From the IMG/VR virus record IMGVR_UViG_3300031237_000001, positions 4,181-68,180 of that record: a stretch of 64,000 nt of DNA, one strand, 5' to 3'. Every line of letters starts with the position of its first letter. Within the stretch, counting starts at the first letter, position 1. Source of the DNA: a virus. Below, in pieces: positions 4,690 to 60,360 of the stretch. The translations under genes and the position numbers were made by a program. Under the pieces are notes generated by a model. The model was given only the letters and a program-made list of their open reading frames with translations, was not told the DNA's origin and ran no database searches.

Positions 4690-4931
4690 TCCTGCGAGAT
4701 AAGCCCGACGAAGACGACGAGGTACCGGATGACTTGCGCTTCCAGCTCTACCAGTGGGACCCGCGGTTGTCGCGGCCCAAGGTGCCGCACCTCTCGGGAG
4801 ATGCTATCGCCTCCATCTGCGGGCGTCCCGACACGTCCAGGCGCATCCAGGACCTGATGAACGCAGTCGCCCAGAAGTTGAAGAAGGTAGAAGAGGCAAA
4901 GGAGAAGGAGACGAAAGATGGCGAGGTTTAA
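4686..4931 (+). CDS. hypothetical protein
   Basis: ATGA coupling. Confidence 0.5.
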   Translation: MILRDKPDEDDEVPDDLRFQLYQWDPRLSRPKVPHLSGDAIASICGRPDTSRRIQDLMNAVAQKLKKVEEAKEKETKDGEV

Positions 4932-5127
4932 GGACGTGGAATGGAGCGTGGAAGCTGACAGGAGCAACCGCGTCTCTTGGGATCAAGTTCAAGCTTCTAT
5001 TCTCATGGACATCCGCGACGAGTTGAAGCAGTTGAACCGGATCTTTTCGTGCCCCAACTTCTTGGCGATGCCCCGGGATCTACGTGCGATTCGTCTGAAT
5101 ACTACGAAGAGAAAGGCGAAGACGTGA
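4918..5127 (+). CDS. hypothetical protein
   Basis: SD AAGGAG; coupled to the nuclease gene. Confidence 0.6.
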   Translation: MARFKDVEWSVEADRSNRVSWDQVQASILMDIRDELKQLNRIFSCPNFLAMPRDLRAIRLNTTKRKAKT

Positions 5128-5939
5128 AGGTAAACTGGGACCGGGTTAAAGCGGCTATTGAAGAGGAAGGCGTTAAGAGGGCGAAGAAGCCGCTGGCCCG
5201 CTTCGACCTGGAGGACGCGGTCGATCTCGTCCGCCTCGCCGCAAACAAGTGGCTCGACGAGGACCTGCGTCTCCTACGAGCCCCCGTCTTCGAGGTTAGC
5301 TTCCGTCAAGAAGTCGTCCCGGGCGTCTACGCCAAGGGCGTCCTGGACGTGTTCACCGAGCATCGTCCCGCGGTCGAAACCGAAGCCTACCTGCCCTGCG
5401 TCATCGACTGGAAGACTCGTCAAACGGCCGACGTTGACAGCGACTGGGCTCGTGACCTCCGCGACTCGGCTCAGTGGCGCATTTACGCCTGGGCCAGCCG
5501 GGCTCCTCACTTTTTCTACCGGGGTCTCTCCCGCCGCTCTCGTAAGTGCCGCGAAGTTCCCATTCAGGTGCCCGAGGACAATGACGCTTGGGTGGAGAAC
5601 TACCTGCGGGGGATCGCTGCGCAGCACGTCGCTCTTACTTCTGCCGAGTTACCCGTGTGGCCTCAAGTCAAACCGCGGGCATGTAGGGCTTGGGGAAGAG
5701 ACTGCGAAAGGCGAGATAGTCTACGCAATACTGGTAATTGCGGTCCTCCCGAGGCTTTGCGAGGCAGCAGGGACCTTAGTTATACGGCAATCGAAAGATT
5801 TCTGCTTTGTCCTGAGCGTTATCGTTGTCATGCTCTAGCACCGGACGGCGAGTATGAGTCTGACGACTCTCTCTTCGGAAGTGCGTTCCATGCCGGTGCG
5901 GCCGAAGCATGGCGTCAGGCTTTTCAGGAGGAGAACTGA
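5124..5939 (+). CDS. PD-(D/E)XK nuclease, Cas4/AddB-like, circularly permuted
   Basis: FEVSF, GVLD, VIDWKT, QxxxY motifs; LSYTAIERFLLCPERY and FGSAFHA at the C-terminus; four Cys. Confidence 0.8.
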   Translation: MKVNWDRVKAAIEEEGVKRAKKPLARFDLEDAVDLVRLAANKWLDEDLRLLRAPVFEVSFRQEVVPGVYAKGVLDVFTEHRPAVETEAYLPCVIDWKTRQTADVDSDWARDLRDSAQWRIYAWASRAPHFFYRGLSRRSRKCREVPIQVPEDNDAWVENYLRGIAAQHVALTSAELPVWPQVKPRACRAWGRDCERRDSLRNTGNCGPPEALRGSRDLSYTAIERFLLCPERYRCHALAPDGEYESDDSLFGSAFHAGAAEAWRQAFQEEN

Positions 5940-5940
5940 G

Positions 5941-6135
5941 ATGGAACACGATCTTATACTACGTCCAGATGGGAAAGCGTACTTCTGTAGGTCGTGTCTG
6001 CGCTTGTGGTTGAGCATGCCTCCCGACCCTGAAGCCGTGTGCCCCAGTACGCCACCGCAGAGCCGGCCCGAGGACTTTAACCGGAACCTTCAGGAGTTGG
6101 CGAAGTGCGCCGGAGCTGAAAGCGAGGGTTTGTGA
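5941..6135 (+). CDS. small hypothetical protein (CxxC)
   Basis: SD GGAGGAG before ATG 5941. Confidence 0.5.
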   Translation: MEHDLILRPDGKAYFCRSCLRLWLSMPPDPEAVCPSTPPQSRPEDFNRNLQELAKCAGAESEGL

Positions 6136-6335
6136 GAAGTACCACCGGCGCTCACACCTCTTTCGTACCCATACTCGGGGTCGCTACGCTGTACCGCTTC
6201 TCGAACCGGCGCTGGCTCGTTCAGTGGTGGTTCCAGATCGGAGCCGATCAGAAGCCGCCGCCGATTCGTGCCGAAGAGATCATCGCCCTTCTGGAAGAGG
6301 TCGTCGCCGAGAATCGGGAGCCGTTGACGAAATGA
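6132..6335 (+). CDS. small hypothetical protein
   Basis: GTGA coupling. Confidence 0.45.
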   Translation: MRSTTGAHTSFVPILGVATLYRFSNRRWLVQWWFQIGADQKPPPIRAEEIIALLEEVVAENREPLTK

Positions 6336-6547
6336 GGACGCGCCCGGATTTTCGCCGTCCCGTTCCTGTTGAGGCCCGTCATCAATGCGGCCCGTTTAAG
6401 GGCGTAGCTTACCGTCCCGGCCTAGGCACCGTGCGCTGCCAAGGCTGTCGCCGTGTCAACCTTTACGAAGGCGGGCAGAGAGATTGGGACGACCTGCTCG
6501 CCGGGATGAAGTCTATGAGACGAGGGGAACGTGGGGCGCTTCTCTAG
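6332..6547 (+). CDS. small zinc-ribbon protein
   Basis: HxC ... CxxC; ATGA coupling. Confidence 0.5.
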   Translation: MRTRPDFRRPVPVEARHQCGPFKGVAYRPGLGTVRCQGCRRVNLYEGGQRDWDDLLAGMKSMRRGERGALL

Positions 6548-6863
6548 GTTACGTCAGGCTCGCGAAGCCGCCGGGCGCCGGGAGAACGAAGATGACCTGG
6601 CTAAGGAGCTGAACATCATCTTGCGGACTACACACTATGAGGACCATGACCACTTCCGCCGGGCCGTATCTCGTTGCGTGCAGCGTGTGCCCGTTTGCTA
6701 TCTCCCTACTCTTCTCGGCGGTGAGCCTCGGCGTATCTCTACTCGTTTGGGTATCGAGATACCTTCCGACGCTGAGTCGCCCCGGCCCCGGCGAAAGAGG
6801 CGCGTCACTGAAGCCCGCCTGCTCCAGTTGCAGAGAGCACGGGAGAGGAGACACGCCCGATGA
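6531..6863 (+). CDS. basic hypothetical protein
   Basis: SD GAGG, GTG start. Confidence 0.5.
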   Translation: MGRFSRLRQAREAAGRRENEDDLAKELNIILRTTHYEDHDHFRRAVSRCVQRVPVCYLPTLLGGEPRRISTRLGIEIPSDAESPRPRRKRRVTEARLLQLQRARERRHAR

Positions 6864-6976
6864 CGGTGGCTGAACCGCCCGAAGTCCTCCTCGGCGCCCT
6901 TCTCTGCTTCGTCCTGGCCGGCTTCCTGCTTTACCTAGCCTTCAGCGACGGGGACGGTACGAGGTTCAGATTCTAA
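6860..6976 (+). CDS. single-TM micropeptide
   Basis: MTVAEPPEVLLGALLCFVLAGFLLYLAFSDGDGTRFRF; SD GAGGAG; ATGA coupling. Confidence 0.5.
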   Translation: MTVAEPPEVLLGALLCFVLAGFLLYLAFSDGDGTRFRF

Positions 6977-7234
6977 TGACGTGGCCTTCTACGACGATCT
7001 TAGATGACCGCCGGGCGTCGGGTGACCACGGGGCGTCACGTCGCCTCCGCGGCTGGTACAGCCGTCGTCCGGGGCCAACGTCCTCATCTCGTTCAAAAAG
7101 CTGGGTCCACAGGCCGTGTTCCCGTCTCAACTGCCACAGTTTCAGTTCCGTCAGTGTCAAGATGCCTTCCTCCTGCCCCGTCTACATGCACGCCGCTTGT
7201 CATACGGGCTGCGTACAAACGGCAAAAATAACCC

Positions 7235-7264
7235 TTGACATACGATGCGGATCTGTGCGAAGAT
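7235..7264 (+). promoter_or_regulatory. possible sigma70 promoter (weak -10)
   Basis: A-rich UP region, TTGACA-18 bp-(TG)cGAAGAT, ATG at 7272. Confidence 0.4.
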
Positions 7265-7271
7265 AACTGGT

Positions 7272-7566
7272 ATGGACGGCGACGTAGAGATCAAGTTCCA
7301 AACAGGGAGGCCGGAAGGAAATGAGCTACGAGTGCGTGACGTGCGGTTCACTCTGCACCCTGAGTCGGAGAGACCTTCAGAACCGTCGGTCCAAGTAAGC
7401 CGAGTGCCCGACACGATGTGGTGGGATCAGAATTGCGTGACATGCCAAGAGATCTGGAGCGCGGGAGGCTTTGGTCCATCCCACGTTGGTTCTAAAGTAC
7501 TGCGAGAGCGGTTCCTTAGCTTCGGGAGGCCAGAATGCCCACTGCACCTGTGACACATGCTTTTAA
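7272..7566 (+). pseudogene. small Cys-rich protein gene with an apparent +1 frameshift
   Basis: CVTC...GFGPSHVGSK continues as YCESGSLASGGQNAHCTCDTCF* only if one A is removed at 7494-7496. Confidence 0.5.
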
Positions 7567-7663
7567 CTGCGCGGACGTTTTTACAGCGGTTGTCGGCGGT
7601 TCGTTTATCGTGGCGTTCGTGGTATTCGCTGTAATCGTGGCGGTGAAATTATGCAAGAAGTGA
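7550..7663 (+). CDS. single-TM micropeptide
   Basis: ...VFTAVVGGSFIVAFVVFAVIVAVKLCKK. Confidence 0.4.
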   Translation: MTHAFNCADVFTAVVGGSFIVAFVVFAVIVAVKLCKK

Positions 7664-7878
7664 AGTGCGCGGGTAACCTGCCGGACGGCTGCGTCGACCC
7701 GTCGGACCTGGATTACTACGAGCGTGTGAACGGCCCCGACGAGGACCCGCAGGACGAGGACGACGAGTCCGATCTGCCGCCCGAGTGTGAGCTGGACGAG
7801 GACTACGAGGCGTGGCTGGACGAGGTTTACAAGCAGGACGACCGGTTTTATCAGGACGCCTGCCGCGTTGCTTCTTAA
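7651..7878 (+). CDS. small very acidic protein
   Basis: NLPDGC motif followed by a D/E-rich stretch. Confidence 0.55.
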   Translation: MQEVKCAGNLPDGCVDPSDLDYYERVNGPDEDPQDEDDESDLPPECELDEDYEAWLDEVYKQDDRFYQDACRVAS

Positions 7879-7913
7879 GGAGACGAGATGCACATTAAGG
7901 TGTGGGCCGAGCG

Positions 7914-8066
7914 ATGATGAAACTTGGTAGCGTCGGCGAGACACGGTTTGAGGCCGACAAACGTAGAGCTAATACAATCGGACTTTACGTGCCGCTTTTC
8001 ATTTCCCTGCTTACGGGATTGGTTGGCTTTGTCTCGTGGTGGATAAGTCTTAGGGAGACAAGATGA
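7914..8066 (+). CDS. single-TM small protein
   Basis: MMKLGSVGETRFEADKRRANTIGLYVPLFISLLTGLVGFVSWWISLRETR; coupled to 8063. Confidence 0.45.
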   Translation: MMKLGSVGETRFEADKRRANTIGLYVPLFISLLTGLVGFVSWWISLRETR

Positions 8067-8461
8067 TGAAACTTGACTTGACGAAGCCGGTTCGTCTGAA
8101 GAATGGTAACGAGGTCAGGATTTACTGCATGGACGGCGGCGGCAACTATCCTGTTCACGGCGCCTACAGGAGTAGCGTTGACAGTAACATCTGGATCGTG
8201 GCGGCGTGGGACATGAAAGGGTTCGCTAACATCTGGATAGGTACCACAGAGAACATGGCTAACTTGGTCAACGTCCCCGAGCCCTTCACTCGCAGCGGCT
8301 GGGTGAACATCTATCCTTATGCCTCGGGGCGTCTTTGTAATCATCCTGGCGTCGGCGCAACGGTGTATGAATCGAAGTCAGACGCCGATAAGAATGCACT
8401 GAACGACCGAATCGCCGTCGTCCCCTTCACGATTACAGGTAACGTAGGAGACGGCCTGTGA
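8063..8461 (+). CDS. hypothetical phage protein
   Basis: LDLTKPVRLKNGxEVRIYCxDGGGxYPVHGA pattern; SD GGGAG. Confidence 0.7.
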   Translation: MMKLDLTKPVRLKNGNEVRIYCMDGGGNYPVHGAYRSSVDSNIWIVAAWDMKGFANIWIGTTENMANLVNVPEPFTRSGWVNIYPYASGRLCNHPGVGATVYESKSDADKNALNDRIAVVPFTITGNVGDGL

Positions 8462-8973
8462 AGGTCGCCCGCGTCCTGCGCATCATCGAGTACGTCGGCC
8501 CCGAAGCGTGGGTAGAGCAGAACTGCATCGCCCAGCGCAAGATCAAGGGCCGTAAGGTTTTCCCGAACGGCGGCTACATCACCGAGGGTATCCTGGGCAA
8601 CACCGCGGAGCTCCTAGAGTGTTCCGCGCTTCAAGAAGCCGCCGAAGCCCTCGTGAACCAGAAGCTCTGCCCGGACTGCGGCGGTGGTCAGAAGTTCGAC
8701 TCGACACTGTGCCGTACCTGCGGGGGCCGCGCTTACGTCTCGGCCATCGTGGACTTCGACGAGACCGCCGAGGAGTTGCGCCGTGAGGCTGATAAGGCTA
8801 CCACGCCGCCTCGTGAAGATCATCGCCTGGGAGCTGAGGAGAGAGAAGACCCAGACGACCTTTGCGCCTGCGGTCACTACAGATCTCAGCATCGTCAGCT
8901 TGAGTATCAATGCGGCGGCGTCGGCCCCGACTGGCAGTGCCCCGCAGCCTGCCCCCACTTCGTAGCAAGTTAA
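8458..8973 (+). CDS. hypothetical protein with zinc fingers
   Basis: CPDCGGG...CRTCGG and CACGH...H...C...C..C motifs. Confidence 0.65.
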   Translation: MKVARVLRIIEYVGPEAWVEQNCIAQRKIKGRKVFPNGGYITEGILGNTAELLECSALQEAAEALVNQKLCPDCGGGQKFDSTLCRTCGGRAYVSAIVDFDETAEELRREADKATTPPREDHRLGAEEREDPDDLCACGHYRSQHRQLEYQCGGVGPDWQCPAACPHFVAS

Positions 8974-8982
8974 GGAGCGTTC

Positions 8983-9435
8983 ATGAATACACGTTATCTG
9001 TACATCGTAGCGGCCGTCCTCCTGTTGACAGCCGCTACCCCGCAGCACCCGAATCACTCGGTTCGCCTCGACCGCCTCCAGGTCTCTGCCGCCGACAATG
9101 ACAAGTACCTTCAGATCGTCGCCGGCAAGGTGCAGCCGTCCTCCGGCGTTCCCCTGCCCGTCTTCGTCGATGCCGCGCTCAATGTGACGACAGGTGTCCT
9201 GCCGATTCTGCGCGACGGTACGACGGGGGTACTCACCTTACCGTCTGCGCCTAATCCGCCGCAGTCCCTGCACCTCTATGTAAATGGACTTCGTCAAGTC
9301 CTGGGTCGGGACATCATCCTGAACGGCACTATCGCAACACCGGGGCCGGACCAGACTTTACCGGACGGCCGCGTGTACACACCGAAGGGAGCGATCTTGG
9401 ATGCTGACGAGATCGTCGCCGATTATCGACGCTAG
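8983..9435 (+). CDS. predicted secreted/membrane protein
   Basis: N-terminal signal-like segment; LYVNGLRQxxGxD beta motif; SD AAGGAG. Confidence 0.65.
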   Translation: MNTRYLYIVAAVLLLTAATPQHPNHSVRLDRLQVSAADNDKYLQIVAGKVQPSSGVPLPVFVDAALNVTTGVLPILRDGTTGVLTLPSAPNPPQSLHLYVNGLRQVLGRDIILNGTIATPGPDQTLPDGRVYTPKGAILDADEIVADYRR

Positions 9436-9447
9436 GAGGAGACCGTC

Positions 9448-9915
9448 ATGGAACTGGTAATTAACAGGTGCTATGGAGGCTTTTCCTTATCGCCTCTTGC
9501 TGTTCAGGAATTGGCGAAGAGAAAGGGTAAGAAGTGTTTCTTCTTTACGTATGACTGCGACAAGGGCTACGTGCCTACGACGCTGGAGAAGTTGTTAAGT
9601 AAGCGTACTCTGTTCTTCTGCGCCTTTTCTCGCGCTGACGCTCCGACACTACTTAACCGCAGCAAGGACTGGGGCGAGATGACGACGGAAGAACGACAGG
9701 CAGAGAATGCTTTGCACGATGAACTAGATCTGCCATCTCGTCCGCCAAATCGTTCCGATCCTGATCTGATCGCCGTTGTTCGGGAACTTGGTGAGGCAGC
9801 TAACGGAGGCTGTGCCGAGTTGGCAATAGTGTCCGTTCCAGATGGCGTAGAGTGGGAAATCGACGAGTACGACGGCGTGGAGCACGTCGCCGAAACGCAC
9901 AGAACTTGGAGATAA
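9448..9915 (+). CDS. conserved hypothetical phage protein
   Basis: VINRCYGGFSLS...RSDPDLIAVVRELG..ANG..A.L.IV..PD.V.W.I.EYDG.E pattern; SD AGGAGG. Confidence 0.8.
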   Translation: MELVINRCYGGFSLSPLAVQELAKRKGKKCFFFTYDCDKGYVPTTLEKLLSKRTLFFCAFSRADAPTLLNRSKDWGEMTTEERQAENALHDELDLPSRPPNRSDPDLIAVVRELGEAANGGCAELAIVSVPDGVEWEIDEYDGVEHVAETHRTWR

Positions 9916-9934
9916 AAAAGGAGAACCTTGAAAC

Positions 9935-10876
9935 ATGGCCGAAGCCGACCGAAGCAAAACGATGATGCTGACGACGGGGAAGGGTAAGGGTGGCCCGACT
10001 AAAGCGGGTAAGCTGCCGGGCCACCGGGCCTCGGAACGAAAGGAGCCGCGCCCGTTCAAAGGCATGTGGTACGGCGAAAGTGGAATGGGCAAGACGTACA
10101 TCGTCGTCCAGCTTTTACTGGTGGGCTTTAAGGTCCTCTACTTCTCGACGGAGATGGGTGGTGACGGTTTAAGGACGGTCGAGTCGGCCCTGAAGAAGCT
10201 GGGGCGTGAAGACCTCCTCGCCAACCTCTACGAGGCCCCGGCCTTCGCCGACTATGAGGAGGTCAGCGACTTCCTTCAGGACCCGGCGTCTCGCTGTCCC
10301 GGTTTGTGGACCGACTTCCAACCGGACTTCATCTTCTGGGACGGCTTCACCGAGTTCCAGCTTCTCTACCTGGAGCGTTACATCGCCGACGAGCTCCAGC
10401 CTGATAACCCGCGGGCCGATAGAGAAGCCGGTCTCATGTCTGTGGAGAAGGACTGGAACATGGTGATGAACGGTACGCTTCGAGGTAGCCACGATTTCTT
10501 CCAGATCCGGGATCCGCAGACGGGCCGGGAGCCGCACAAGATCGTGACGTGTAAGCAGGCCGAGAAGGAGAGAGATGCCGTGCCGGGTGTCGAAGGTAAG
10601 CCGGCGCCGATGAAGGCGAAGAAGACCTTCATCCTTCAGGGGGCGGCGAAGAAGATCTTCGAGGGCGCCTTCGACTTCATCTTCCTCGCTGCCAAGAAGG
10701 ACTCGCTCAAGCCGGGCGAGCCGCCCTCCTTTGTCTGGCGTGTGCAGGCGTCGGAGAAGCAGACGGCGAAGGTCCGCGGCTGTGAGTTTACCGAGAAGGA
10801 GATCCCGGCCGACTTCTCCTCTCTATGGTCACGCCTCGGCCTGCCGCTTCCCGAAGACAAGGAGAAGACGACGTGA
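9935..10876 (+). CDS. AAA_24 / Sak4-like ATPase (recombination)
   Basis: Walker A YGESGMGKT, Walker B IFWDG, C-terminal AKxR. Confidence 0.8.
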   Translation: MAEADRSKTMMLTTGKGKGGPTKAGKLPGHRASERKEPRPFKGMWYGESGMGKTYIVVQLLLVGFKVLYFSTEMGGDGLRTVESALKKLGREDLLANLYEAPAFADYEEVSDFLQDPASRCPGLWTDFQPDFIFWDGFTEFQLLYLERYIADELQPDNPRADREAGLMSVEKDWNMVMNGTLRGSHDFFQIRDPQTGREPHKIVTCKQAEKERDAVPGVEGKPAPMKAKKTFILQGAAKKIFEGAFDFIFLAAKKDSLKPGEPPSFVWRVQASEKQTAKVRGCEFTEKEIPADFSSLWSRLGLPLPEDKEKTT

Positions 10877-13098: not shown

Positions 13099-13716
13099 AT
13101 GCCTCTACCCAGAACAGAAGTGAAGAAGAAGCCGACGCTAGCGTGCCTCGGCTACGTCAAGGATGTCGGCGCCCCCAAGGTCAACGAGACGACCGGGACG
13201 ATCTCAGTGCCAATCGAGATCGAAGCCTTAGAGCAGGGCCAGGGCCGCAAGTACTACTTCTCTTACAAGCAAGAGATGCTCGAACCGGGCTTCTCTCCCG
13301 CCGATGCGGACCCAGGAACGGAGTTCCTCTACCGGAAGAACCTCGCCGTCGAGGATGAGGACAGCTTCGACGAGGGCGATGTTTCCGCGTTGAAAGCGAT
13401 GACCGGCGACGCTTACGAAGAGGTCACCGAGGAGCTCATCAAGGTGAACGGTCGCGGCGCCGAGGGCGTCGCCGAGGTCCTCCGCGAGCGGCTCCTGGCC
13501 CTGGCCGAGGACGGCTTGAAGTTCGGCTACGTCCTTCGACAGCAGTACGACAAGACGGGCGAGACCGACGACGCCGGCAAGGCGATCAAGAAGGCGACCA
13601 AGTGGTACGAGGTCGGTACGTTCGCTATCCCGACCGACGCGGTCCTGGCGCGGTGGGAGAAGCGGGCGAAGAAGGCCAAGGCCGACAAGCCCTTCATTCT
13701 CACCTTTGAGACGTAG
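13099..13716 (+). CDS. probable single-stranded DNA-binding protein
   Basis: Strong SD AAGGAG, acidic, beta-rich N-terminus, near Sak4-like ATPase (function inferred from context). Confidence 0.45.
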   Translation: MPLPRTEVKKKPTLACLGYVKDVGAPKVNETTGTISVPIEIEALEQGQGRKYYFSYKQEMLEPGFSPADADPGTEFLYRKNLAVEDEDSFDEGDVSALKAMTGDAYEEVTEELIKVNGRGAEGVAEVLRERLLALAEDGLKFGYVLRQQYDKTGETDDAGKAIKKATKWYEVGTFAIPTDAVLARWEKRAKKAKADKPFILTFET

Positions 13717-14258: not shown

Positions 14259-14527
14259 AGCAGACGAAAGTTCTATGCGACATATGCGGCCGGGAGAAGG
14301 CGACGACTATCTGGTTCACCATCGACCGCCAGATGGACGCCGCAGGTAGCATGGACGACGTTTGCGAGTCCCTGGACCTGTGCGGCGAACATATGTTCGA
14401 GTGTTACTCGATTCTGCTCCTACGTGAAGAGGACCCGGCGAAGAGAAGGGGCGCGGCCCGCCACGTTTACATGACGTTGCGTGCCCGTACCAAGAACTCC
14501 CCGCTACGTTTGGAAGATCTGTCGTGA
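14255..14527 (+). CDS. small zinc-binding protein
   Basis: CDICG ... DLCGEH; SD GGAGG. Confidence 0.65.
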   Translation: MKQTKVLCDICGREKATTIWFTIDRQMDAAGSMDDVCESLDLCGEHMFECYSILLLREEDPAKRRGAARHVYMTLRARTKNSPLRLEDLS

Positions 14528-15174
14528 GCGTCCGTCGCAAACCTGCTCTGTGCAACCTCTGCCCGTACGCGAAGATCGGGGGCGGCTTCGTCCCCGACTG
14601 GTGGCCGCCGTCCGAACCTCGCCTCGCCGTCTTCCTGGAGGCACCAGGCGGCGACGAAGTCCTTCTCTGTGAACCTATGGTCGGTCGCGCTGGCCGCTTC
14701 TGGGAACGTGCCCTTCTACGCCCCCTCGGTCTCTGCCGCGACGAGGTCATCATCGCCAACTGCTTACGCTGCCGGCCGTGGGGACCGCCGAAGCTGCCGA
14801 ATCAGTTCCCGTCTGGACCGCTCGCCAAGAAGGTCATGCAGATCTGTCGGCAGTACGACTTCTTTCACGGGCAAGCCGGCTCCCTCGTCCCGCGGGGCCT
14901 CGCCGACTGGGACCCGAATCTCTTCGTCATCACGTATCACCCGGCCGCGATCCTGCGTGAACGGGCCTTCTACCGGCTCGCCCTGGCCGACTTCGAGAAG
15001 GCCGGTAGGTACATGGAGAAGGGCTGGCGCGTCTGCGTCCTCTGCGGCGACAAGGCGGCGTCACTCGTCTGGCCTTTGGTTAATAAAGGCGGGGTTGAGG
15101 CTTGGCGCGGTCACGTTTTCACCGCCTCGTTGAAGTCGCCGCGTGCATCTCAATTACCGAGAGGTTTACGATGA
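14524..15174 (+). CDS. uracil-DNA glycosylase family 4-like protein (rearranged C-terminal segments)
   Basis: CxxC, EAPG..E...PMVGRAG, NCLRCRP, TYHPAAILR. Confidence 0.8.
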   Translation: MSVRRKPALCNLCPYAKIGGGFVPDWWPPSEPRLAVFLEAPGGDEVLLCEPMVGRAGRFWERALLRPLGLCRDEVIIANCLRCRPWGPPKLPNQFPSGPLAKKVMQICRQYDFFHGQAGSLVPRGLADWDPNLFVITYHPAAILRERAFYRLALADFEKAGRYMEKGWRVCVLCGDKAASLVWPLVNKGGVEAWRGHVFTASLKSPRASQLPRGLR

Positions 15175-15531: not shown

Positions 15532-15611
15532 ACGAAGCTCTACATCTCGCCGCTTGGGGTCTCCTCCTCGTCGCCTTGGGCCACGTCATCGGTTCACGGC
15601 GTCAGGGCTGA
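15528..15611 (+). CDS. single-TM micropeptide
   Basis: MNEALHLAAWGLLLVALGHVIGSRRQG; GTGA coupling. Confidence 0.45.
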   Translation: MNEALHLAAWGLLLVALGHVIGSRRQG

Positions 15612-15616
15612 CGAAC

Positions 15617-17737
15617 ATGGCGACTAAGTTCACGAAAATCGCCCTTCCCGAGTTGAACCTGCCGGTTCAAATGAGCCTGCTCGCCGGGCAGACGCCTCGG
15701 GCGGCCCGCGACCTTTACACGCCGTTTCCACACGTCTACCGGAATCTGGAAGCTCTACCCAAAGTCATCCAGGACTGCGTGTCCAAGTCGCCTGGCCTCG
15801 TCGGTATGGACATGGAGTACGATACGTCGAGGGGTAACAAGCCGTCGATCCTCGGCCTCTCCGGGTTGAACTACGCGATCTCGGTACCCTGGTCGGAAGA
15901 GTGCGTCGGCGCGTTACGTACCTGCATCGACCGGGGCCTGAAGCTCGTCGCTTATTCTACGATGTCGGCGGATAAGCCCTGCGTGGACCCCTACGTGAAG
16001 ACGCGACGAGAAGACTGGCTCGACGCGATGCTCAGTCACTACCTCGCTCATCAGGACCTGTGTAAGCGGCCTAGTAAAGAGGAGGATGATGACCCGGGTG
16101 CCCTCGGCTTCATGAACCTGTGGACCGCCTACTCGCTCGTCGGGGACGCGCCGAACTGGAAGCGCTGCCGGGGCATCGATTGTCACGGTCCCTGCCCGTC
16201 TCACTCCGTCTTCGACTACAACGCCGCCGACTCCTGGGCCGGCCTCGTCATCGAGATAGAGAACGGTAAGGCGCTCGACGCCATGGGTGTCCCCGCTTCT
16301 CTACGCGCCGAGATGCTGGAGCTGAGCGACCTCTGCGCGTCGATGGAGCGGCGTGGGATCGGCGTAGACAGAAGCGTCGTCACCTCCTTAGACGCGGAAT
16401 TGAAGTCTCGGCAAGCGGCCCTGTTCAAGTCGAACGAGCCGTTCAACCCGAAGTCTCCCAAGATGGTCGTCGCGTGGTTCAAGGAGCAGGCCCGCCTTCT
16501 CAAGCTGCCTGAGCTAGCCGTTGAGAAGAACGACAAGGAGAGCGTTCAGGAGGCGGTGCTCGCCTTGGGTAAACGCTACCTGATCGACGGCGAGAAGCCT
16601 GCCGAGATCGTCGAGGGCTTACGAGACGTGGCTGATCTACCCGCGCCTGGCCTCGCCCTCTGTGATCTGTACGACTTCAAGGCGGGTGGAAAGGGTCTCA
16701 AAGCTTGGTTCGACGAGCGGTACTTCGGCCGCGATGGCCGTCTTCATCCTCGGTTCATCACTACTGGTGCTTCCACCGGCCGCCTCTCCTCGTCCCGTCC
16801 GAACTGGCACAACGTCGTCAAGGCCGGTTGGGGCCTGAAGATGCGCTCCGCTCTCGTCGCCGCCCCCGGCTACCAGATCCTGCGGGCCGACTGGAAGCAG
16901 CTTGAGTTACGTATGTGTCTCTACCTCTCCGGGTACGATCCCAAGGACATTCAGGGGGACGCCTTCACGTGGCTCGTCGAGCACAGCAGCGGCCAGTTCT
17001 CCCGCGCTTCTAAGTTGACGGGGAAGAAGGAACGGGACTTGGCGAAGATCACGTCGCACGGCACGGACTATCTCATGGGCTTCAAGGTCTTCACGTACGA
17101 CGAGATGGACTCGCTCTCAACGAAGCGGGCCGAGGCAGCGGGCGCCCTGCGTCTCTACCGGGACTGGGAGTACGGCGGTGGCGTCGTCGGGTTCACCGGC
17201 GTTCATCTCGCGGAGATGCTGTTCGGTGACAAGAGCTTCGAGTCCCGCCGTAAAGCCCTGGAGATTCAGGAGGACGTGTACATCGGCGCCTTCTCCTCCA
17301 TTCGTAGATGGCAACGGCAGGTCCTGGCCGAGATCGAAGCCCGTGGCTACGTCAAGTACCCGACCGGCCGTTTCCTGCGTCTCTCCGGGTCCTCTTGGGA
17401 CGAGGAGTCCCGGCCCCGGGCGATGGAAGAGGACGCGAAGATAGGCGTCGCTGCTCTGGGCCAAGGCGTCTCCGCCGATCACGTTCAGGCGGTGATGCTC
17501 CGTTTTCGGCGTGAGCACGGCGACCTAGGAGTACCGACGCTCCAGGTTCACGACGAGCTTCTCTACGAGGTCCCGCTTGAGTGGGGCCGCGAGAAGTGTG
17601 CCGAGTTCATCCGGCCGATGACGGAGGAGACGTGGCGCCTACCCGGCTTCTCGGCGCCGGTTGACGCCGGCCTCGGCGCGTCGTGGCTCGAAGCGATGCA
17701 GGCCGCCGACGACCCGAAAAGGAGACTGCAAGTATGA
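15617..17737 (+). CDS. polA: DNA polymerase family A with 3'-5' exonuclease domain
   Basis: ExoI DMEYD, ExoIII YNAAD, TGRLSSSRPN, motif A ADWKQLELR, motif B RDLAK...Y, motif C QVHDEL. Confidence 0.92.
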   Translation: MATKFTKIALPELNLPVQMSLLAGQTPRAARDLYTPFPHVYRNLEALPKVIQDCVSKSPGLVGMDMEYDTSRGNKPSILGLSGLNYAISVPWSEECVGALRTCIDRGLKLVAYSTMSADKPCVDPYVKTRREDWLDAMLSHYLAHQDLCKRPSKEEDDDPGALGFMNLWTAYSLVGDAPNWKRCRGIDCHGPCPSHSVFDYNAADSWAGLVIEIENGKALDAMGVPASLRAEMLELSDLCASMERRGIGVDRSVVTSLDAELKSRQAALFKSNEPFNPKSPKMVVAWFKEQARLLKLPELAVEKNDKESVQEAVLALGKRYLIDGEKPAEIVEGLRDVADLPAPGLALCDLYDFKAGGKGLKAWFDERYFGRDGRLHPRFITTGASTGRLSSSRPNWHNVVKAGWGLKMRSALVAAPGYQILRADWKQLELRMCLYLSGYDPKDIQGDAFTWLVEHSSGQFSRASKLTGKKERDLAKITSHGTDYLMGFKVFTYDEMDSLSTKRAEAAGALRLYRDWEYGGGVVGFTGVHLAEMLFGDKSFESRRKALEIQEDVYIGAFSSIRRWQRQVLAEIEARGYVKYPTGRFLRLSGSSWDEESRPRAMEEDAKIGVAALGQGVSADHVQAVMLRFRREHGDLGVPTLQVHDELLYEVPLEWGREKCAEFIRPMTEETWRLPGFSAPVDAGLGASWLEAMQAADDPKRRLQV

Positions 17738-21253: not shown

Positions 21254-21327
21254 TGACAAGAATCGTCTTGCCAATAATTGTTGGTTTGTTGTTAGGTCTT
21301 GTATTTCTGCGAATAGTAAAGAGATGA
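21253..21327 (+). CDS. single-TM micropeptide
   Basis: MTRIVLPIIVGLLLGLVFLRIVKR; coupled on both sides. Confidence 0.5.
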   Translation: MTRIVLPIIVGLLLGLVFLRIVKR

Positions 21328-21917
21328 GCTACGATACAAGTTCTTTGACTCCTGTCGTTCGGCCCGTGCTTGATAAGATAAAGCCGAACTTCATCTGCGC
21401 CAAGTGCAAGGAGGGCTTCCACAACTTGGGTAGCCTGGCGATTCACGAGGAGACGATTCACGAGGTTCCGTTCACCAAGACGATGCGCGGCTCACTTACC
21501 GAAACGGTCGGCCCTCCTTATCCATCTTCAGGCGGACGTATCGACAACGACGTTCAGGACGGCCCTTATCCTGCTCTTGACGCGCCGAGACAAAAGGTCG
21601 TGTACATCTCGGGTCCCTACCGAGCGGCGACGGAGAACGGTGTTTACGAGAACATTCAAAGGGCGCGTGTCGCCGCCATGAAGTACTGGAAGCTGGGGTA
21701 CGCCGTCATCTGTCCGCACCTGAACACGGCCTTCATGGGCGAGCTCGGCGGTTCTCCCGAGGACGACCAGGAGATACTTATCAATGGGGACCTGGAGTTC
21801 GTACGGCGCAGTGACATCATCGTCATGCTGCCTCGCTGGGCCGACTCAGACGGCGCCCGCCAGGAGTTGATGGAAGCTCGCCGTCGTGGTAAGGAGGTCG
21901 TGTGGGAGAGTCTATGA
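21324..21917 (+). CDS. C2H2 zinc finger fused to a DUF4406/nucleoside 2-deoxyribosyltransferase-like domain
   Basis: CAKC..GF.....LAIHEETIH; VYISGPY, ICPH, DIIVMLPRW..S.GARQE. Confidence 0.75.
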   Translation: MSYDTSSLTPVVRPVLDKIKPNFICAKCKEGFHNLGSLAIHEETIHEVPFTKTMRGSLTETVGPPYPSSGGRIDNDVQDGPYPALDAPRQKVVYISGPYRAATENGVYENIQRARVAAMKYWKLGYAVICPHLNTAFMGELGGSPEDDQEILINGDLEFVRRSDIIVMLPRWADSDGARQELMEARRRGKEVVWESL

Positions 21918-55318: not shown

Positions 55319-56800
55319 CTACGGGACAACGAGGAGCAGGGAACCTTCTGCGCCGTTAGCTCCCGTGTTGTTATCCGTGTAATTCCACCAGTTCTTGGAG
55401 TCGAAGGACCCGGTCAGGTCCCTTGTCAACGCCTTCCTCACCGTAACAGCATCCCAGAGCTGGCCGATCATCCAGAACTGAGCGGCGACGGCGGTGGACC
55501 AACCGATGAGAGGCTCCGAGACGACCGCCGTCTGGTTGAACCACAGGAGCTCGTCGGCCATGTCGTTGCTGACCGCCTGGACTGGGACGGCGAGCCGTAT
55601 GTTCCCGGTCCCGGTCGTCCCCGCCGTATTTTCCACCGTCGAGGAGTTCAGGATGTAGTGGTTCTCTGCGTCTCGGGCATGAAGTTGGTTGCGGAAGGAT
55701 CGGACGCCCGTTGTGGAGCCGACCATCCAAACTGCGTTGTAAATCTCGTAGCCGTCACGAGCAACGCGGCCTCCAGACGTGTACGCCCCGTTCCCTACGG
55801 AACCGTCGATGGTGAAGGTCGTCGCACCCGTGACCGTAATCGCGTTCGACGTAACATTCGCAGCCGTATTTCCGCCGACACCCCGGATCGTGACGATGTA
55901 CCCGGTCGAGTACCCGTGGGCGGCGGAAGTCGTAATCTCAATCGGCGTGGCGTTCGTCGCGCCCGTAACCGTCTTCGGCTTCTGGAAATCGGGCAGCCAC
56001 GGGACGCCGCCGTGCCCGGCCCCGAACTGTGTAGTACCGACCGCGTTATCCTGCGTGAAGAAGAACTGGTACTTATCAGCGATGATACGCATGTCGATGC
56101 CGCTTCCCAGAAGCCGCATCCCGTAAGTACCGGAGCTGTTGTTCGTCGCCGTCGCCGCATCGGGCGGCGTGTGCGTTGAGACCGCGCCCTCCTCGTTGTA
56201 GAGGATGATCCGAAGCCCATCGTAGTTCGGCGCTCCCGTAGCAGTCTCATGAAAGACGTACATCTGCGTGCGCATCAACTCCGGCGTCAAGGCGCTCAGG
56301 AACTTGTAACCGCCGAAGAGAAGGTCTACGTTGGTGAAGCTCAGGGTGGCAAAGGAAGCCTGAGTACAAGCAAGTCCATTGGCGGCCGGCCCGCCCGTCT
56401 TCGCTCGCACGTCCAGGGTCGTCGCCGTTAGTCCGTACGACTCAATCGTAGGGTGCAGCGTCGTCGCCGTGGAATAGGCCGTTCCCGAACCGGCACCGAG
56501 AGTAATCGCAGCGTGCAGGTTCGACAGGGAATCGGCAAGGGAGACGCCCCGGGTAACCTCCCCGTCATTCGCATTGTTAATCGTCGTCTTGAACGTGTAG
56601 GTCTTAGCGTCGAGCGTGACCGTTGAGGTGTCCGGGGGATCGCCCGTGCCAGTCAGGCGGTTCAGTGCCTTGACCGCCTCCGTCTGCGTCCAACCGGCGG
56701 CGAGCAGAGTCGTGCGCCAGTTCTCTACGGCGGCTGTCCTGGACGCTACTGCGACGTAGAGATCGTTCCGATTCGTACCTCCGGCGTATTGTATGGCCAC
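55319..56800 (-). CDS. tail fibre/spike protein with E1-FCCH-like domain
   Basis: VTGATNATPIEITTSAAHGYSTG...V.GNTAAN...GNGAYTSGG; T-rich. Confidence 0.65.
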   Translation of the reverse strand: MAIQYAGGTNRNDLYVAVASRTAAVENWRTTLLAAGWTQTEAVKALNRLTGTGDPPDTSTVTLDAKTYTFKTTINNANDGEVTRGVSLADSLSNLHAAITLGAGSGTAYSTATTLHPTIESYGLTATTLDVRAKTGGPAANGLACTQASFATLSFTNVDLLFGGYKFLSALTPELMRTQMYVFHETATGAPNYDGLRIILYNEEGAVSTHTPPDAATATNNSSGTYGMRLLGSGIDMRIIADKYQFFFTQDNAVGTTQFGAGHGGVPWLPDFQKPKTVTGATNATPIEITTSAAHGYSTGYIVTIRGVGGNTAANVTSNAITVTGATTFTIDGSVGNGAYTSGGRVARDGYEIYNAVWMVGSTTGVRSFRNQLHARDAENHYILNSSTVENTAGTTGTGNIRLAVPVQAVSNDMADELLWFNQTAVVSEPLIGWSTAVAAQFWMIGQLWDAVTVRKALTRDLTGSFDSKNWWNYTDNNTGANGAEGSLLLVVP

Positions 56801-59064: not shown

Positions 59065-59421
59065 CTACTCGTCGTCGTTCCCGCCAAGCGGCGTTCCCCA
59101 CAGCGTCTTCACACCCTTCTTCGCCAAGTTGCGTTGCAGGTCCACCCACTCGTCCCAGTCTTCCTGTTCGCCCAGCCGCTTCAGGACCTCGTCGACATCG
59201 TCGCAAACGTCCCCCATGTGATCGCACAGAGTCAGGCTCGCTATGAAGCTCAGTAGGAGATCCCGGCTCTCCTGCGCAGCCTCGTCAAGCGCGGCCTCGA
59301 TCTCCCGGGCCGCGTCCTCCACGTCGCCCCGGCACTTCAGCCGAGGGTCCTGCCCCTCTACGTCGCAGTATCGACAGTGCCAGGCTTCTGCCAGCTCTCG
59401 CGCCTTCTCCTTGTGGCTCAT
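59065..59421 (-). CDS. hypothetical protein
   Basis: SD GGAGGAGG; coupled to the methylase stop. Confidence 0.6.
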   Translation of the reverse strand: MSHKEKARELAEAWHCRYCDVEGQDPRLKCRGDVEDAAREIEAALDEAAQESRDLLLSFIASLTLCDHMGDVCDDVDEVLKRLGEQEDWDEWVDLQRNLAKKGVKTLWGTPLGGNDDE

Positions 59422-60323
59422 GTCTCCTCCTCCGTTTCCGTCCAGGCCCGGATCACTTCCGCCGCGATTTGCGGGACGATGGCGTTTCCGAGGGCGCGTA
59501 GTTTAGCCACTCGACCGGGAACCCCATGAGCCAGGAGACGAACTCCGGGTTTAACGCGCCGGTACTTCCCTTGCGGGTCTGGTCCGATGAGCGCATAGTC
59601 GTCCCAAGTTTCACGTAAGCTACGTTCTCCAACAAGTTCCCTCTCTTCCGATCCCAGTGATCCCCCATTCCGGTAGTTGGATTGGCACTCAGTTTCTCCC
59701 CGTTGCTGGTCGGCGTCGCCCACCCGCTCAAGTCGTGTGCTACTCCAGCCAGCGTCAAGCCGTGTGTCTCCCCGTGGCTCGGCGCCGACTTGGTGTTGCG
59801 ATTCTCGTTTGGACTGCTTCGAGGTGTAGGCCACCCAGTAGAGCCGGTTCCGTCTGTGGGGCGCTCCGACGGCGCAAGCCGGCAGATCGAACGCCCGGAC
59901 GGCGTAACCTTCCCTCTCCAGGTCAGCCGCCACTCCATCGAGCCAAGCGTACCCAGCCGCGCCGCTAACCTGCTCACCGCACAGTCTGACAGGTCGGGCG
60001 GCTTGGACGAGTCGATGAAAGTCGGGCCATAGATGCCGTTCATCCAGGGTTCCTTTTCTACGACCCGCGACCGAGAATGGCTGGCACGGGCACGAGCCCG
60101 TCCAGATGGGCCGGTCGTCCGGCCAGCCCGCGAGTCTGAGTGCTGCGGACCAGCCGCCGAGTCCGGCGAAGAGGTGGACCTGTCGATAACCTCTGACATC
60201 ATCGGGCGAAACCTCCTTGATCGACCGCTCATCCACGTCCCCGGGCGCGATCAGACCCGCTTTTATCAAGTTTCTGAGCCACTGGACGCAGTACTGGTCG
60301 ATCTCGTTGTAGTAAGCGGCCAT
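59418..60323 (-). CDS. C5 cytosine DNA methyltransferase, alpha-like chain
   Basis: YYNEID, LFAGLGG, GSCPCQPFS, GEQV, VGAPH.R.R.YW, LRALGNAIVP. Confidence 0.9.
   Translation of the reverse strand: MAAYYNEIDQYCVQWLRNLIKAGLIAPGDVDERSIKEVSPDDVRGYRQVHLFAGLGGWSAALRLAGWPDDRPIWTGSCPCQPFSVAGRRKGTLDERHLWPDFHRLVQAARPVRLCGEQVSGAAGYAWLDGVAADLEREGYAVRAFDLPACAVGAPHRRNRLYWVAYTSKQSKRESQHQVGAEPRGDTRLDAGWSSTRLERVGDADQQRGETECQSNYRNGGSLGSEERELVGERSLRETWDDYALIGPDPQGKYRRVKPGVRLLAHGVPGRVAKLRALGNAIVPQIAAEVIRAWTETEEET
59453..60232 (-). CDS. nested out-of-frame methyltransferase partner (beta-like chain; start uncertain)
   Basis: Alternative frame stays open for 259 codons with GWPTP repeats and motif IX-like LNPEFVSWLMGFP.EW. 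Confidence 0.7.
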   Translation of the reverse strand: MSGRSRRFRPMMSEVIDRSTSSPDSAAGPQHSDSRAGRTTGPSGRARARASHSRSRVVEKEPWMNGIYGPTFIDSSKPPDLSDCAVSRLAARLGTLGSMEWRLTWRGKVTPSGRSICRLAPSERPTDGTGSTGWPTPRSSPNENRNTKSAPSHGETHGLTLAGVAHDLSGWATPTSNGEKLSANPTTGMGDHWDRKRGNLLENVAYVKLGTTMRSSDQTRKGSTGALNPEFVSWLMGFPVEWLNYAPSETPSSRKSRRK

Positions 60324-60331
60324 TTCCAGAT

Positions 60332-60360
60332 AGTTTAGCAGGTTTCGCGGCAAAAGTCAA
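60332..60360 (-). promoter_or_regulatory. sigma70-type promoter for the methyltransferase operon
   Basis: TTGACT-17 bp-TAAACT with extended TG on the - strand. Confidence 0.75.

Follow-up and report, generated by a model that had tools for sequence, protein, structure and literature searches.

Nucleases of the Cas4, AddB and Dna2 type are known by the name 'iron-staple', which refers to an iron-sulfur (Fe-S) cluster that ties one Cys, far away at the N-terminus, to three others at the C-terminus. The canonical chain of these enzymes begins with a pair of helices on which the first Cys sits, the motif I helix (GxxxH, with the metal-site His) and a helical region, and continues with the beta-sheet core (motif II D, motif III (D/E)xK and QhxxY) and the three Cys at the C-terminus. 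Here, a gene for a 271-amino-acid nuclease (labelled P0001) was analysed at positions 5124..5939 of a 64,000-nucleotide stretch of viral DNA, referred to below as the window. The window comprises bases 4181-68180 of the 68,180-base virus record IMGVR_UViG_3300031237_000001, which is rated complete by CheckV, and has a G+C content of 60.5%. P0001 is very probably a phage PD-(D/E)XK nuclease of the Cas4/RecB family and the Fe-S iron-staple type that has undergone circular permutation in nature.

One distant and three clustered Cys, together with motifs I-III and QhxxY, have been described as the family signature (PMC4176176). In the Cas4 protein Pcal_0546, as described in the same source (PMC4176176), the cluster ligands are Cys64 and Cys200, 203 and 209, His94 was proposed as a fourth metal ligand 30 residues past Cys64, and the metal/catalytic residues Asp123, Glu136, Lys138, Gln149 and Tyr153 are counterparts of residues in P0001. 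The nuclease domains of AdnA, AddB, Dna2 and ACE1 and the Cas4 proteins (SSO0001, 4ic1; Pcal_0546, 4r5q; type I-C) have a RecB-like fold, as does the model of P0001. In all of these enzymes the first Cys and motif I are N-terminal and stand 130-300 residues ahead of the other three Cys, whereas in the permuted family the four positions span about 41 residues. P0001 also differs from Cas4/AddB-type enzymes in lacking a PF01930 match, neighbouring cas genes and a fused helicase.

Circular permutation has been described within the PD-(D/E)XK superfamily for Hef, in which the C-terminus supplies the first core helix (PMC3424549), so this kind of event is already known. The Hef/XPF-type nucleases (pdb 1j22) are, however, a distant family without an Fe-S cluster in which only the core helix was moved, whereas in P0001 a module of roughly 60 residues that includes an Fe-S ligand was moved, within the RecB/Cas4 clade. 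Full-text literature searches returned no published description of a permutation within the Cas4/RecB Fe-S clade; the string 'permut' has no occurrence in a Cas4 phylogenomics paper (PMC5704561), and the main text, supplements excluded, of a 2026 permutation survey (CIRPIN, PMC13552848) has no occurrence of nuclease, Cas4, RecB or phage. Our confidence is evenly divided on the fuller statement that this would be the first described natural permutant in the Fe-S iron-staple RecB/Cas4/AddB lineage, of single origin and so far known only from uncultured (mostly soil) phages, with its ligands in one knuckle of about 41 residues and occupying the canonical slot by a Sak4-like annealase.

Swapped profile order in P0001 and its viral family

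Against the whole of P0001, the Pfam profile PF12705 (PDDEXK_1) scored 37.2 bits (gathering cut-off 22; E 3.9e-9) in two stretches, with residues 9-187 corresponding to profile positions 69-237 and residues 218-265 to positions 2-51. When the two parts of the protein were scanned alone, residues 1-199 again matched positions 69-237 (E 2.4e-4, 21.6 bits) and residues 200-271 matched positions 2-51 (E 8.6e-5, 23.0 bits). P0001 does not follow the colinear order of PF12705, in which the Cys helix and motif I come ahead of the core; its residues 1-208 are the counterpart of the part of a canonical enzyme that comes after the motif I helix. The C-terminal module of P0001 also matched phrog_69 (exonuclease) at about profile positions 88-140, and the core in other members matched the same profile at 173-323.

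RecB motifs I (GxxxH; G252/H256), II and III and QhxxY, as defined in PMC4176176, are all present. The core carries FEVSF (E57), GVLD (D75), IDWKT (D95, K97) and QWRIY (Q117, Y121), and is followed in order by C187-x6-C194...C206, LSYTAIERFLLCPERY (C229) and FGSAFHAG (H256), with H256 lying 27 residues past C229. P0001 had no match to PF01930 (Cas_Cas4) at E<=10 and was assigned to no NCBIfam family. A sequence search of the PDB with P0001 gave 0 matches at E<=10, and a PDB search with the permuted-family profile gave weak matches to MGME1 and AdnA (E 0.1-0.7) with their pieces in swapped order.

Relatives were collected with P0001 as the phmmer query in an exhaustive search over 1.84 billion cluster representatives, which returned 170 proteins at E<=1e-3, 135 at <=1e-10 and 21 at <=1e-30. 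Among the 150 matches listed, nearly all aligned as one colinear stretch over the whole length and all but six fragments were 240-344 amino acids long. The family alignment (n=146) was built from P0001, P0004 and 144 of the 150 listed matches, leaving out the six fragments of <230 amino acids. Hidden Markov models (HMMs), one for the core (P0001 residues 1-208) and one for the C-terminal module (212-271), were run on the stored proteins P0001-P0154, and the module was found after the core in 153 of the 154, the exception being P0154. At four related viral loci, the C-terminal 66 amino acids matched PF12705 positions 1-52 in every case, and the N-terminal part matched later PF12705 positions in two, one of them weakly.

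The catalytic and Cys residues are conserved across the aligned members. D95, K97, C187, C194, C229 and R234 are each present in 146/146, and D47, D75 and Q117 each in 145/146; G252 is kept in 144, Y121 and H256 in 143, and E57 in 142. The third Cys column, at L200 of P0001, is occupied by Cys in 145/146 members with P0001 as the sole exception, and the pattern C-x6-C-x5-C occurs in 121/154 stored proteins. The four Cys columns have a median span of 41 residues, and the linker between the three-Cys loop and the relocated module is 13-31 residues long (median 16, and about 16 in P0001; n=146). In P0001 (window 5721-5741) L200 is followed six residues on by C206, a sequence on which four metagenome runs agree, and P0003, which is 68% identical to P0001, has Cys and Ala at the L200 and C206 positions in a loop of equal length. 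Judged from the sequence, the L200/C206 arrangement in P0001 looks like a shift of an Fe-S ligand.

The original prediction for this gene, made from its sequence alone, had described a natural circular permutant that would give two PF12705 pieces in swapped order, share this order with homologues and carry its four putative Fe-S ligands contiguously. It was borne out by the order of the profile pieces (69-237, then 2-51), by the same permuted order in 153 of 154 stored proteins and by the median ligand span of 41 residues across the family. The motifs that it listed are likewise all present, with one correction: C206, which it had taken as the third Cys, falls off the family's third Cys column, where P0001 has L200.

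The same residues bear on whether P0001 could be a catalytically dead derivative that serves as a DNA-binding or structural protein. There is a precedent in a Cas4-derived nucleocapsid protein described from an archaeal virus (PMC4625639), and P0001 lacks the family's third Cys column. D75, D95, K97, Q117, Y121 and H256 are nevertheless all kept in P0001 and nearly invariant in the family, and the replacement Cys stands 6 residues on in a loop of unchanged length; a dead derivative is thus considered highly improbable.

The continuity of the gene was checked using Logan contigs (not raw reads) from four soil-metagenome runs belonging to four studies, X1-X4. All four runs carry the nuclease stretch without a difference, joint or loose end. 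X1 covers the whole stretch, and the contigs of X2 (4983-6200), X3 (5365-6200) and X4 (5617-5925) each run across the junction between core and module; no RNA dataset was listed as carrying this stretch. An assembly or gene-calling artefact, in which ordinary nuclease fragments were joined in the wrong order or an open reading frame (ORF) fused parts of two tandem genes, has to be considered for a metagenome-assembled virus record, particularly as X1 may be the record's own source. Set against this are the identical contigs from the three other runs and studies, family matches that stay colinear down to about 25-30% identity, the same architecture in six independent viral contigs, conservation of the linker and both termini among homologues, and the absence of any other PF12705 match in the 68-kb genome. 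Such an artefact has next to no probability.

The gene is also coupled to its neighbours, as had been claimed together with the absence of an assembly break, and both statements hold: the stop of the upstream ORF overlaps the nuclease start (GTGA), the downstream ORF begins at ATG 5941, 2 nt past the nuclease stop and preceded by a AGGAGGAG stretch, and the junction is identical in the three further runs and the architecture recurs in many homologues. Pfam and PHROG scans of the two flanking small ORFs found no nuclease remnant. GTG 5124 was taken as the gene start because homologues begin at that position, and a longer frame from TTG 4977 was rejected on the same ground.

In public databases, members of the family appear under generic names and with precomputed PF12705 assignments. 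ESM Atlas clusters of 53-97 members are 75-100% viral. In BFVD, the entry A0A6J5MFE0 ('PD-(D/E)XK nuclease superfamily') matched with a template modelling (TM) score of 0.81 over the full length, the second match with 0.74 and later ones with <=0.55. A tblastn search of 50,697 GenBank phage records with P0001 and P0010 gave no match at E<=1e-3. In PHROGs the permuted proteins have no family of their own, and no PHROG match at all was obtained for 5 of the 12 sampled members. A pattern search of GTDB genome contigs gave 64 pattern matches with 0 confirmed, which is no evidence of absence from cellular genomes because the patterns were narrow.

A canonical-order sister family and the predicted fold

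The exception among the stored proteins, P0154 (342 amino acids), was also one of the 5 proteins returned by a word-indexed profile search with the permuted family. In P0154 the module (35-82) stands ahead of the core (112-295), whereas in P0001 the module (212-271) stands behind it. The permuted-family HMM matched P0154 in two parts, HMM positions 213-262 to residues 35-82 and positions 27-206 to residues 112-295, and BLASTP of P0001 against P0154 gave swapped pieces, 132-195 with 226-286 (E 2e-5) and 210-258 with 32-80 (E 7e-5).

P0154 and 80 relatives were then treated as a family, in which the order is canonical in 81/81 and both pieces matched the permuted-family HMMs at <1e-3 in 65/81. 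Alignment of the two families by hhalign paired permuted positions 38-206 with canonical positions 119-290 (probability 98%, E 1.4e-13) and stopped at the third Cys in both. Common to both families are VWP...C-x6-C-x5-C, SxS...CP(E/R)xxR and FGxA. The P0154 family, which is viral and matches phrog_1218 and phrog_69, further shares FGxAxx(H/G), E, D, (D/E)xK and QxxxY with the P0001 family. It differs in having ExK at motif III, where P0001 has DxK, and in mostly lacking the motif I His, with Gly in its place (G78 in P0154). Canonical relatives also have a C-terminal extension past the Cys cluster (P0154 296-342, with a strand at 313-316 and a helix at 317-333) that the permuted family lacks.

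The three canonical-order proteins scanned each gave a single colinear PF12705 match (from 1 or 2 to 246), whereas no colinear full-length PD-(D/E)XK match, which the original prediction had named as an outcome that would refute it, was found for P0001. An HMM of 76 canonical proteins matched P0001 in three out-of-order pieces (best 8.7 bits). On a doubled P0001 sequence the same HMM gave one colinear domain over the junction, residues 215-466 corresponding to HMM positions 12-263 (18.3 bits, independent E-value 8.7e-6). The reading of P0001 as a natural circular permutant is supported by the swapped profile order, by the conservation of this order in the family and by the existence of the canonical counterpart.

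An AlphaFold2 model of P0001 was generated from the 146-sequence alignment, with a predicted local distance difference test score (pLDDT) of 95.2 and a predicted TM score (pTM) of 0.91. The C-terminal module was modelled at pLDDT 87-98 (residues 211-270; last residue 64), D75 lies on strand 68-80, and D95-W-K97 lies on strand 90-99. The model indicates a RecB-like fold. The best PDB matches in Foldseek were Cas4 SSO0001 (4ic1, top), AdnA, the DinG entry 9kqh, RecE, ACE1 and MGME1, with query-normalised TM scores of 0.28-0.39. Using VIA-align, residues 1-206 of the model aligned with AdnA 839-1039 (Z 9.2, 180 aligned, root-mean-square deviation 4.5) and with ACE1 73-266 (Z 8.1, 168 aligned, root-mean-square deviation 3.4); the model further matched Dna2 176-414 (Z 7.7), AddB 850-1140 (Z 7.6), SSO0001 (Z 7.3) and type I-C Cas4 36-209 (Z 6.0). 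Residues 210-271 were left unaligned. The sequence-profile evidence is given more weight than these alignments, because a Z near 8 is just moderately above the background quoted for the tool.

As a control, the model of P0154 (pLDDT 91.7) aligned with the same enzymes from the starts of their domains, with AdnA 784-1038 (Z 15.6, 233 aligned), AddB 776-1134 (Z 15.2), ACE1 12-271 (Z 14.5) and Cas4 5-203 (Z 8.8). Compared with the P0154 model, the P0001 model fails to cover the initial 31-74 residues of each target, where the first Cys and motif I are located. After rotation, helices 42-50, 52-60 and 69-87 of P0154 correspond to helices 220-228, 230-238 and 247-270 of P0001, and helices 90-100 and 116-137 to helices 5-20 and 26-50, with the strands and later helices in the same order. 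These matching elements suggest that the chain was opened just past the motif I helix and that the old ends were joined by the linker.

The models also bear on whether the fold, in a protein of permuted sequence, is completed in trans, with the C-terminal module docking on the core of another chain in a domain-swapped dimer or ring. Relatives are oligomeric, the Cas4 protein SSO0001 being described as a decamer of dimers and SSO1391 as a dimer (PMC4176176), and in T7 endonuclease I, of the same superfamily, the first core helix is swapped (PMC3424549). Against such docking, the monomer model is confident throughout, including the C-terminal module, and the linker is of conserved length and fits an intramolecular connection by the Cys loop. 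Completion in trans is judged unlikely, and P0001 is predicted to fold as one domain.

Genomic context and predicted function

The record is that of a tailed phage, with an SU10-type portal and adaptor, a capsid protein, a large terminase and an HD protein, and the same genome encodes a family A polymerase, a protein of the uracil-DNA glycosylase (UDG) superfamily and a C5 methyltransferase. The features of the nuclease gene and its surroundings are collected in Table 1. Permuted homologues were found on six viral contigs of 48-74 kb. The permuted nuclease belongs to a module with Sak4-like and PolA genes: in 5/6 of these related loci the nuclease is immediately followed by the Sak4-like gene, after which come homologues of the 13099-13716 gene, a UDG-like gene and the polymerase. 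The assignment of the Sak4-like gene product of the window, which is below the PF13479 cut-off, is accompanied by an orthologue in locus L007 that is above it (35.2 bits).

Table 1. Coordinates of the nuclease gene, its parts and the surrounding genes within the window
Feature	Position	Strand	Remarks
Gene for 271-aa Cas4/RecB-like PD-(D/E)XK nuclease (P0001), very probably circularly permuted	5124..5939	+	GTG start, TGA 5937-5939; N-terminus as in homologues
Upstream 69-aa ORF	4918..5127	+	Stop overlaps nuclease start (GTGA); no family match
Downstream 64-aa ORF	5941..6135	+	Cys-rich; weak RING-type zinc-finger matches, E about 0.1
Residues 1-208: helical region and nuclease core (E57, D75, D95-W-K97 strands; Q117...Y121 helix) to Cys-rich loop	5124..5747	+	PF12705 69-237
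Motif III (D/E)xK, D95-W96-K97	5406..5414	+	D95 and K97 in 146/146 aligned members
Contiguous putative Fe-S ligand region, C187, C194, L200, C206, C229	5682..5810	+	Family Cys columns
Relocated N-terminal module, residues 212-271: SxT...LCPERYR helix pair (C229) and motif I helix FGSAFH (G252, H256)	5757..5936	+	PF12705 2-51, phrog_69, P0154 32-82
Sak4-like/AAA_24 single-stranded DNA-annealing ATPase gene	9935..10876	+	phrog_124 E 3.5e-5; PF13479 19.9 bits, below cut-off
Conserved 205-aa protein	13099..13716	+	No Pfam or PHROG match; homologues in L002, L004, L005
UDG-superfamily protein	14524..15174	+	PF03167 E 4.5e-6; syntenic in 5/6 loci
Family A DNA polymerase	15554..17737	+	PF00476 E 5.5e-27, phrog_17; syntenic in 4/6 loci

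The canonical sister family was confirmed at least 462 times in viral contigs (from the first 598 pattern matches), many of these contigs being 41-47 kb long. In the four canonical-order loci examined, an AAA_24 gene comes after the nuclease in all four, directly in three, with PolA further downstream; a superfamily 1 (SF1) helicase lies upstream in the three loci whose upstream ORF was scanned. The canonical module (for example in L057 114-10014, L040, L081 and L062) runs from an SF1 (UvrD-like) helicase to the PDDEXK_1 nuclease, AAA_24, small genes and a family A polymerase, with the small genes including a deoxynucleoside monophosphate kinase in L040 and DUF6378 in L081. When 27 canonical-family loci were compared with the window ORFs by BLASTP, the polymerase was matched in 7 and the nuclease in 1, and the AAA_24 neighbour was visible by Pfam alone.

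A Cas4-domain exonuclease beside a Sak4-like annealase has been described as a phage repair module (PMC13687109), and Sak4 proteins are described as RecA-like annealases (PMC2896510). The published module, from Pseudomonas phage Phi47 and named 'Healer', consists of a Cas4-domain exonuclease (Gp61), a Sak4-like protein (Gp64) and a DUF669 protein (Gp63) (PMC13687109); the present locus is likened to it on its published description, and differs in that no DUF669 match was found in the window. The 13099..13716 product, which is syntenic between the Sak4-like and UDG-like genes, could by its position be guessed to be a single-stranded DNA-binding protein or a DUF669-like annealase partner.

Synteny with a Sak4-like gene in a DNA polymerase A module fits a recombination exonuclease. 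By analogy with these systems, we infer that P0001 acts on DNA ends as a metal-dependent exonuclease, resecting them for the annealase. It is predicted to act as an Mg/Mn-dependent 5'-to-3' exonuclease whose products would feed the Sak4-like annealase, in the setting of phage recombination-dependent replication or break repair.

A role other than end resection for recombination, such as host DNA degradation, anti-defence or a Cas4-like manipulation of host CRISPR spacer uptake, is regarded as rather unlikely. A link between Cas4-like proteins of phages and spacer acquisition by the host has been drawn (PMC4804229), in the window phage some 4 kb of small ORFs stands between the nuclease and the Sak4-like gene, and the published Cas4-exonuclease/Sak4-like module counters CRISPR cleavage by repair (PMC13687109), so that anti-defence and recombination would overlap. 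Replication and recombination are indicated instead by the Sak4-like, UDG-like and PolA genes that are syntenic with the nuclease in relatives, and by the canonical form occupying the same slot. P0001 has no PF01930 match, and no cas gene or Cas domain was found among the 48 larger window ORFs scanned, no CRISPR-array search having been made.

The interval 5941-9934, between the nuclease and the Sak4-like gene, is filled by about 4 kb of small ORFs, nearly all without a family match, and looks like an accessory-gene insertion. Within it, ORF 9448-9915 matches phrog_16527, and two ORFs are Cys-rich, 5941-6135 and 8458-8973, the latter with several CxxC pairs. Elsewhere in the window, 20408-21253 matches phrog_7339 ('DNA repair exonuclease'), 21324-21917 encodes a nucleoside 2-deoxyribosyltransferase-like DUF4406 protein, and 59421-60353 (minus strand) encodes a C5 cytosine methyltransferase. 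At 55322-56800 (minus strand) a 493-amino-acid protein in the structural block carries a ubiquitin-activating enzyme E1 FCCH domain (PF16190, E 3.3e-7, above cut-off), which is unexpected there.

Origin of the permuted order and its implications

In the proposed arrangement, the permuted chain would start just past the motif I helix and run through the core and the three-Cys loop, and then, by way of a linker of some 16 residues, into what was the N-terminal module. In canonical enzymes the two chain ends come together at the Fe-S cluster, so that the fold can survive if these ends are joined and the chain is opened past motif I. The four putative Fe-S ligands would thereby become contiguous, and the protein is predicted to bind a cluster. 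The family would have arisen once, the simplest route being that a canonical gene was duplicated in tandem or fused and then lost both ends.

Several observations weigh against parts of this interpretation. Taken separately, the two PF12705 pieces of P0001 come out at about the gathering cut-off of 22 bits (21.6 and 23.0 bits), and the N-terminal part of two of the four relatives scanned has no PF12705 match at E<=1. The doubled-sequence test is weak family-wide, with the best domain spanning the junction in 38/146 members, a median best score that goes from 13.5 to 12.85 bits, and a gain of >5 bits in 15/146. The C-terminal module is taken as the probable structural equivalent of the canonical N-terminal part because of its motifs, the succession of its secondary-structure elements and the stretch of each PDB target left unaligned. 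Cluster binding by P0001 itself is less certain because it alone is without the family's third Cys. The duplication route is put forward conditionally because no intermediate with the module at both ends was found among the 154 and 81 proteins. In the window phage some 4 kb separates the nuclease from the Sak4-like gene downstream, and the two are not adjacent; locus L003 has no Sak4-like gene within 4.7 kb downstream.

A permuted nuclease opens no long-standing question. The finding is moderately interesting with regard to protein evolution and the 'iron staple' concept, and has a practical use in annotating phage recombination modules. Profile libraries see the permuted nucleases in pieces, so that phage recombination modules in soil viromes are under-annotated. 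The canonical sister is still recognisable and occupies the same genomic slot, which makes the pair useful for the study of permutation origins and for permutation-aware homology search. If the fuller statement given above on a first permutant of this lineage is true, long-range stapling of the chain ends would not be needed for function in the RecB/Cas4/AddB lineage. A natural and well-populated family with neighbouring ligands asks what the iron staple is for, and may offer a compact Fe-S module for study.

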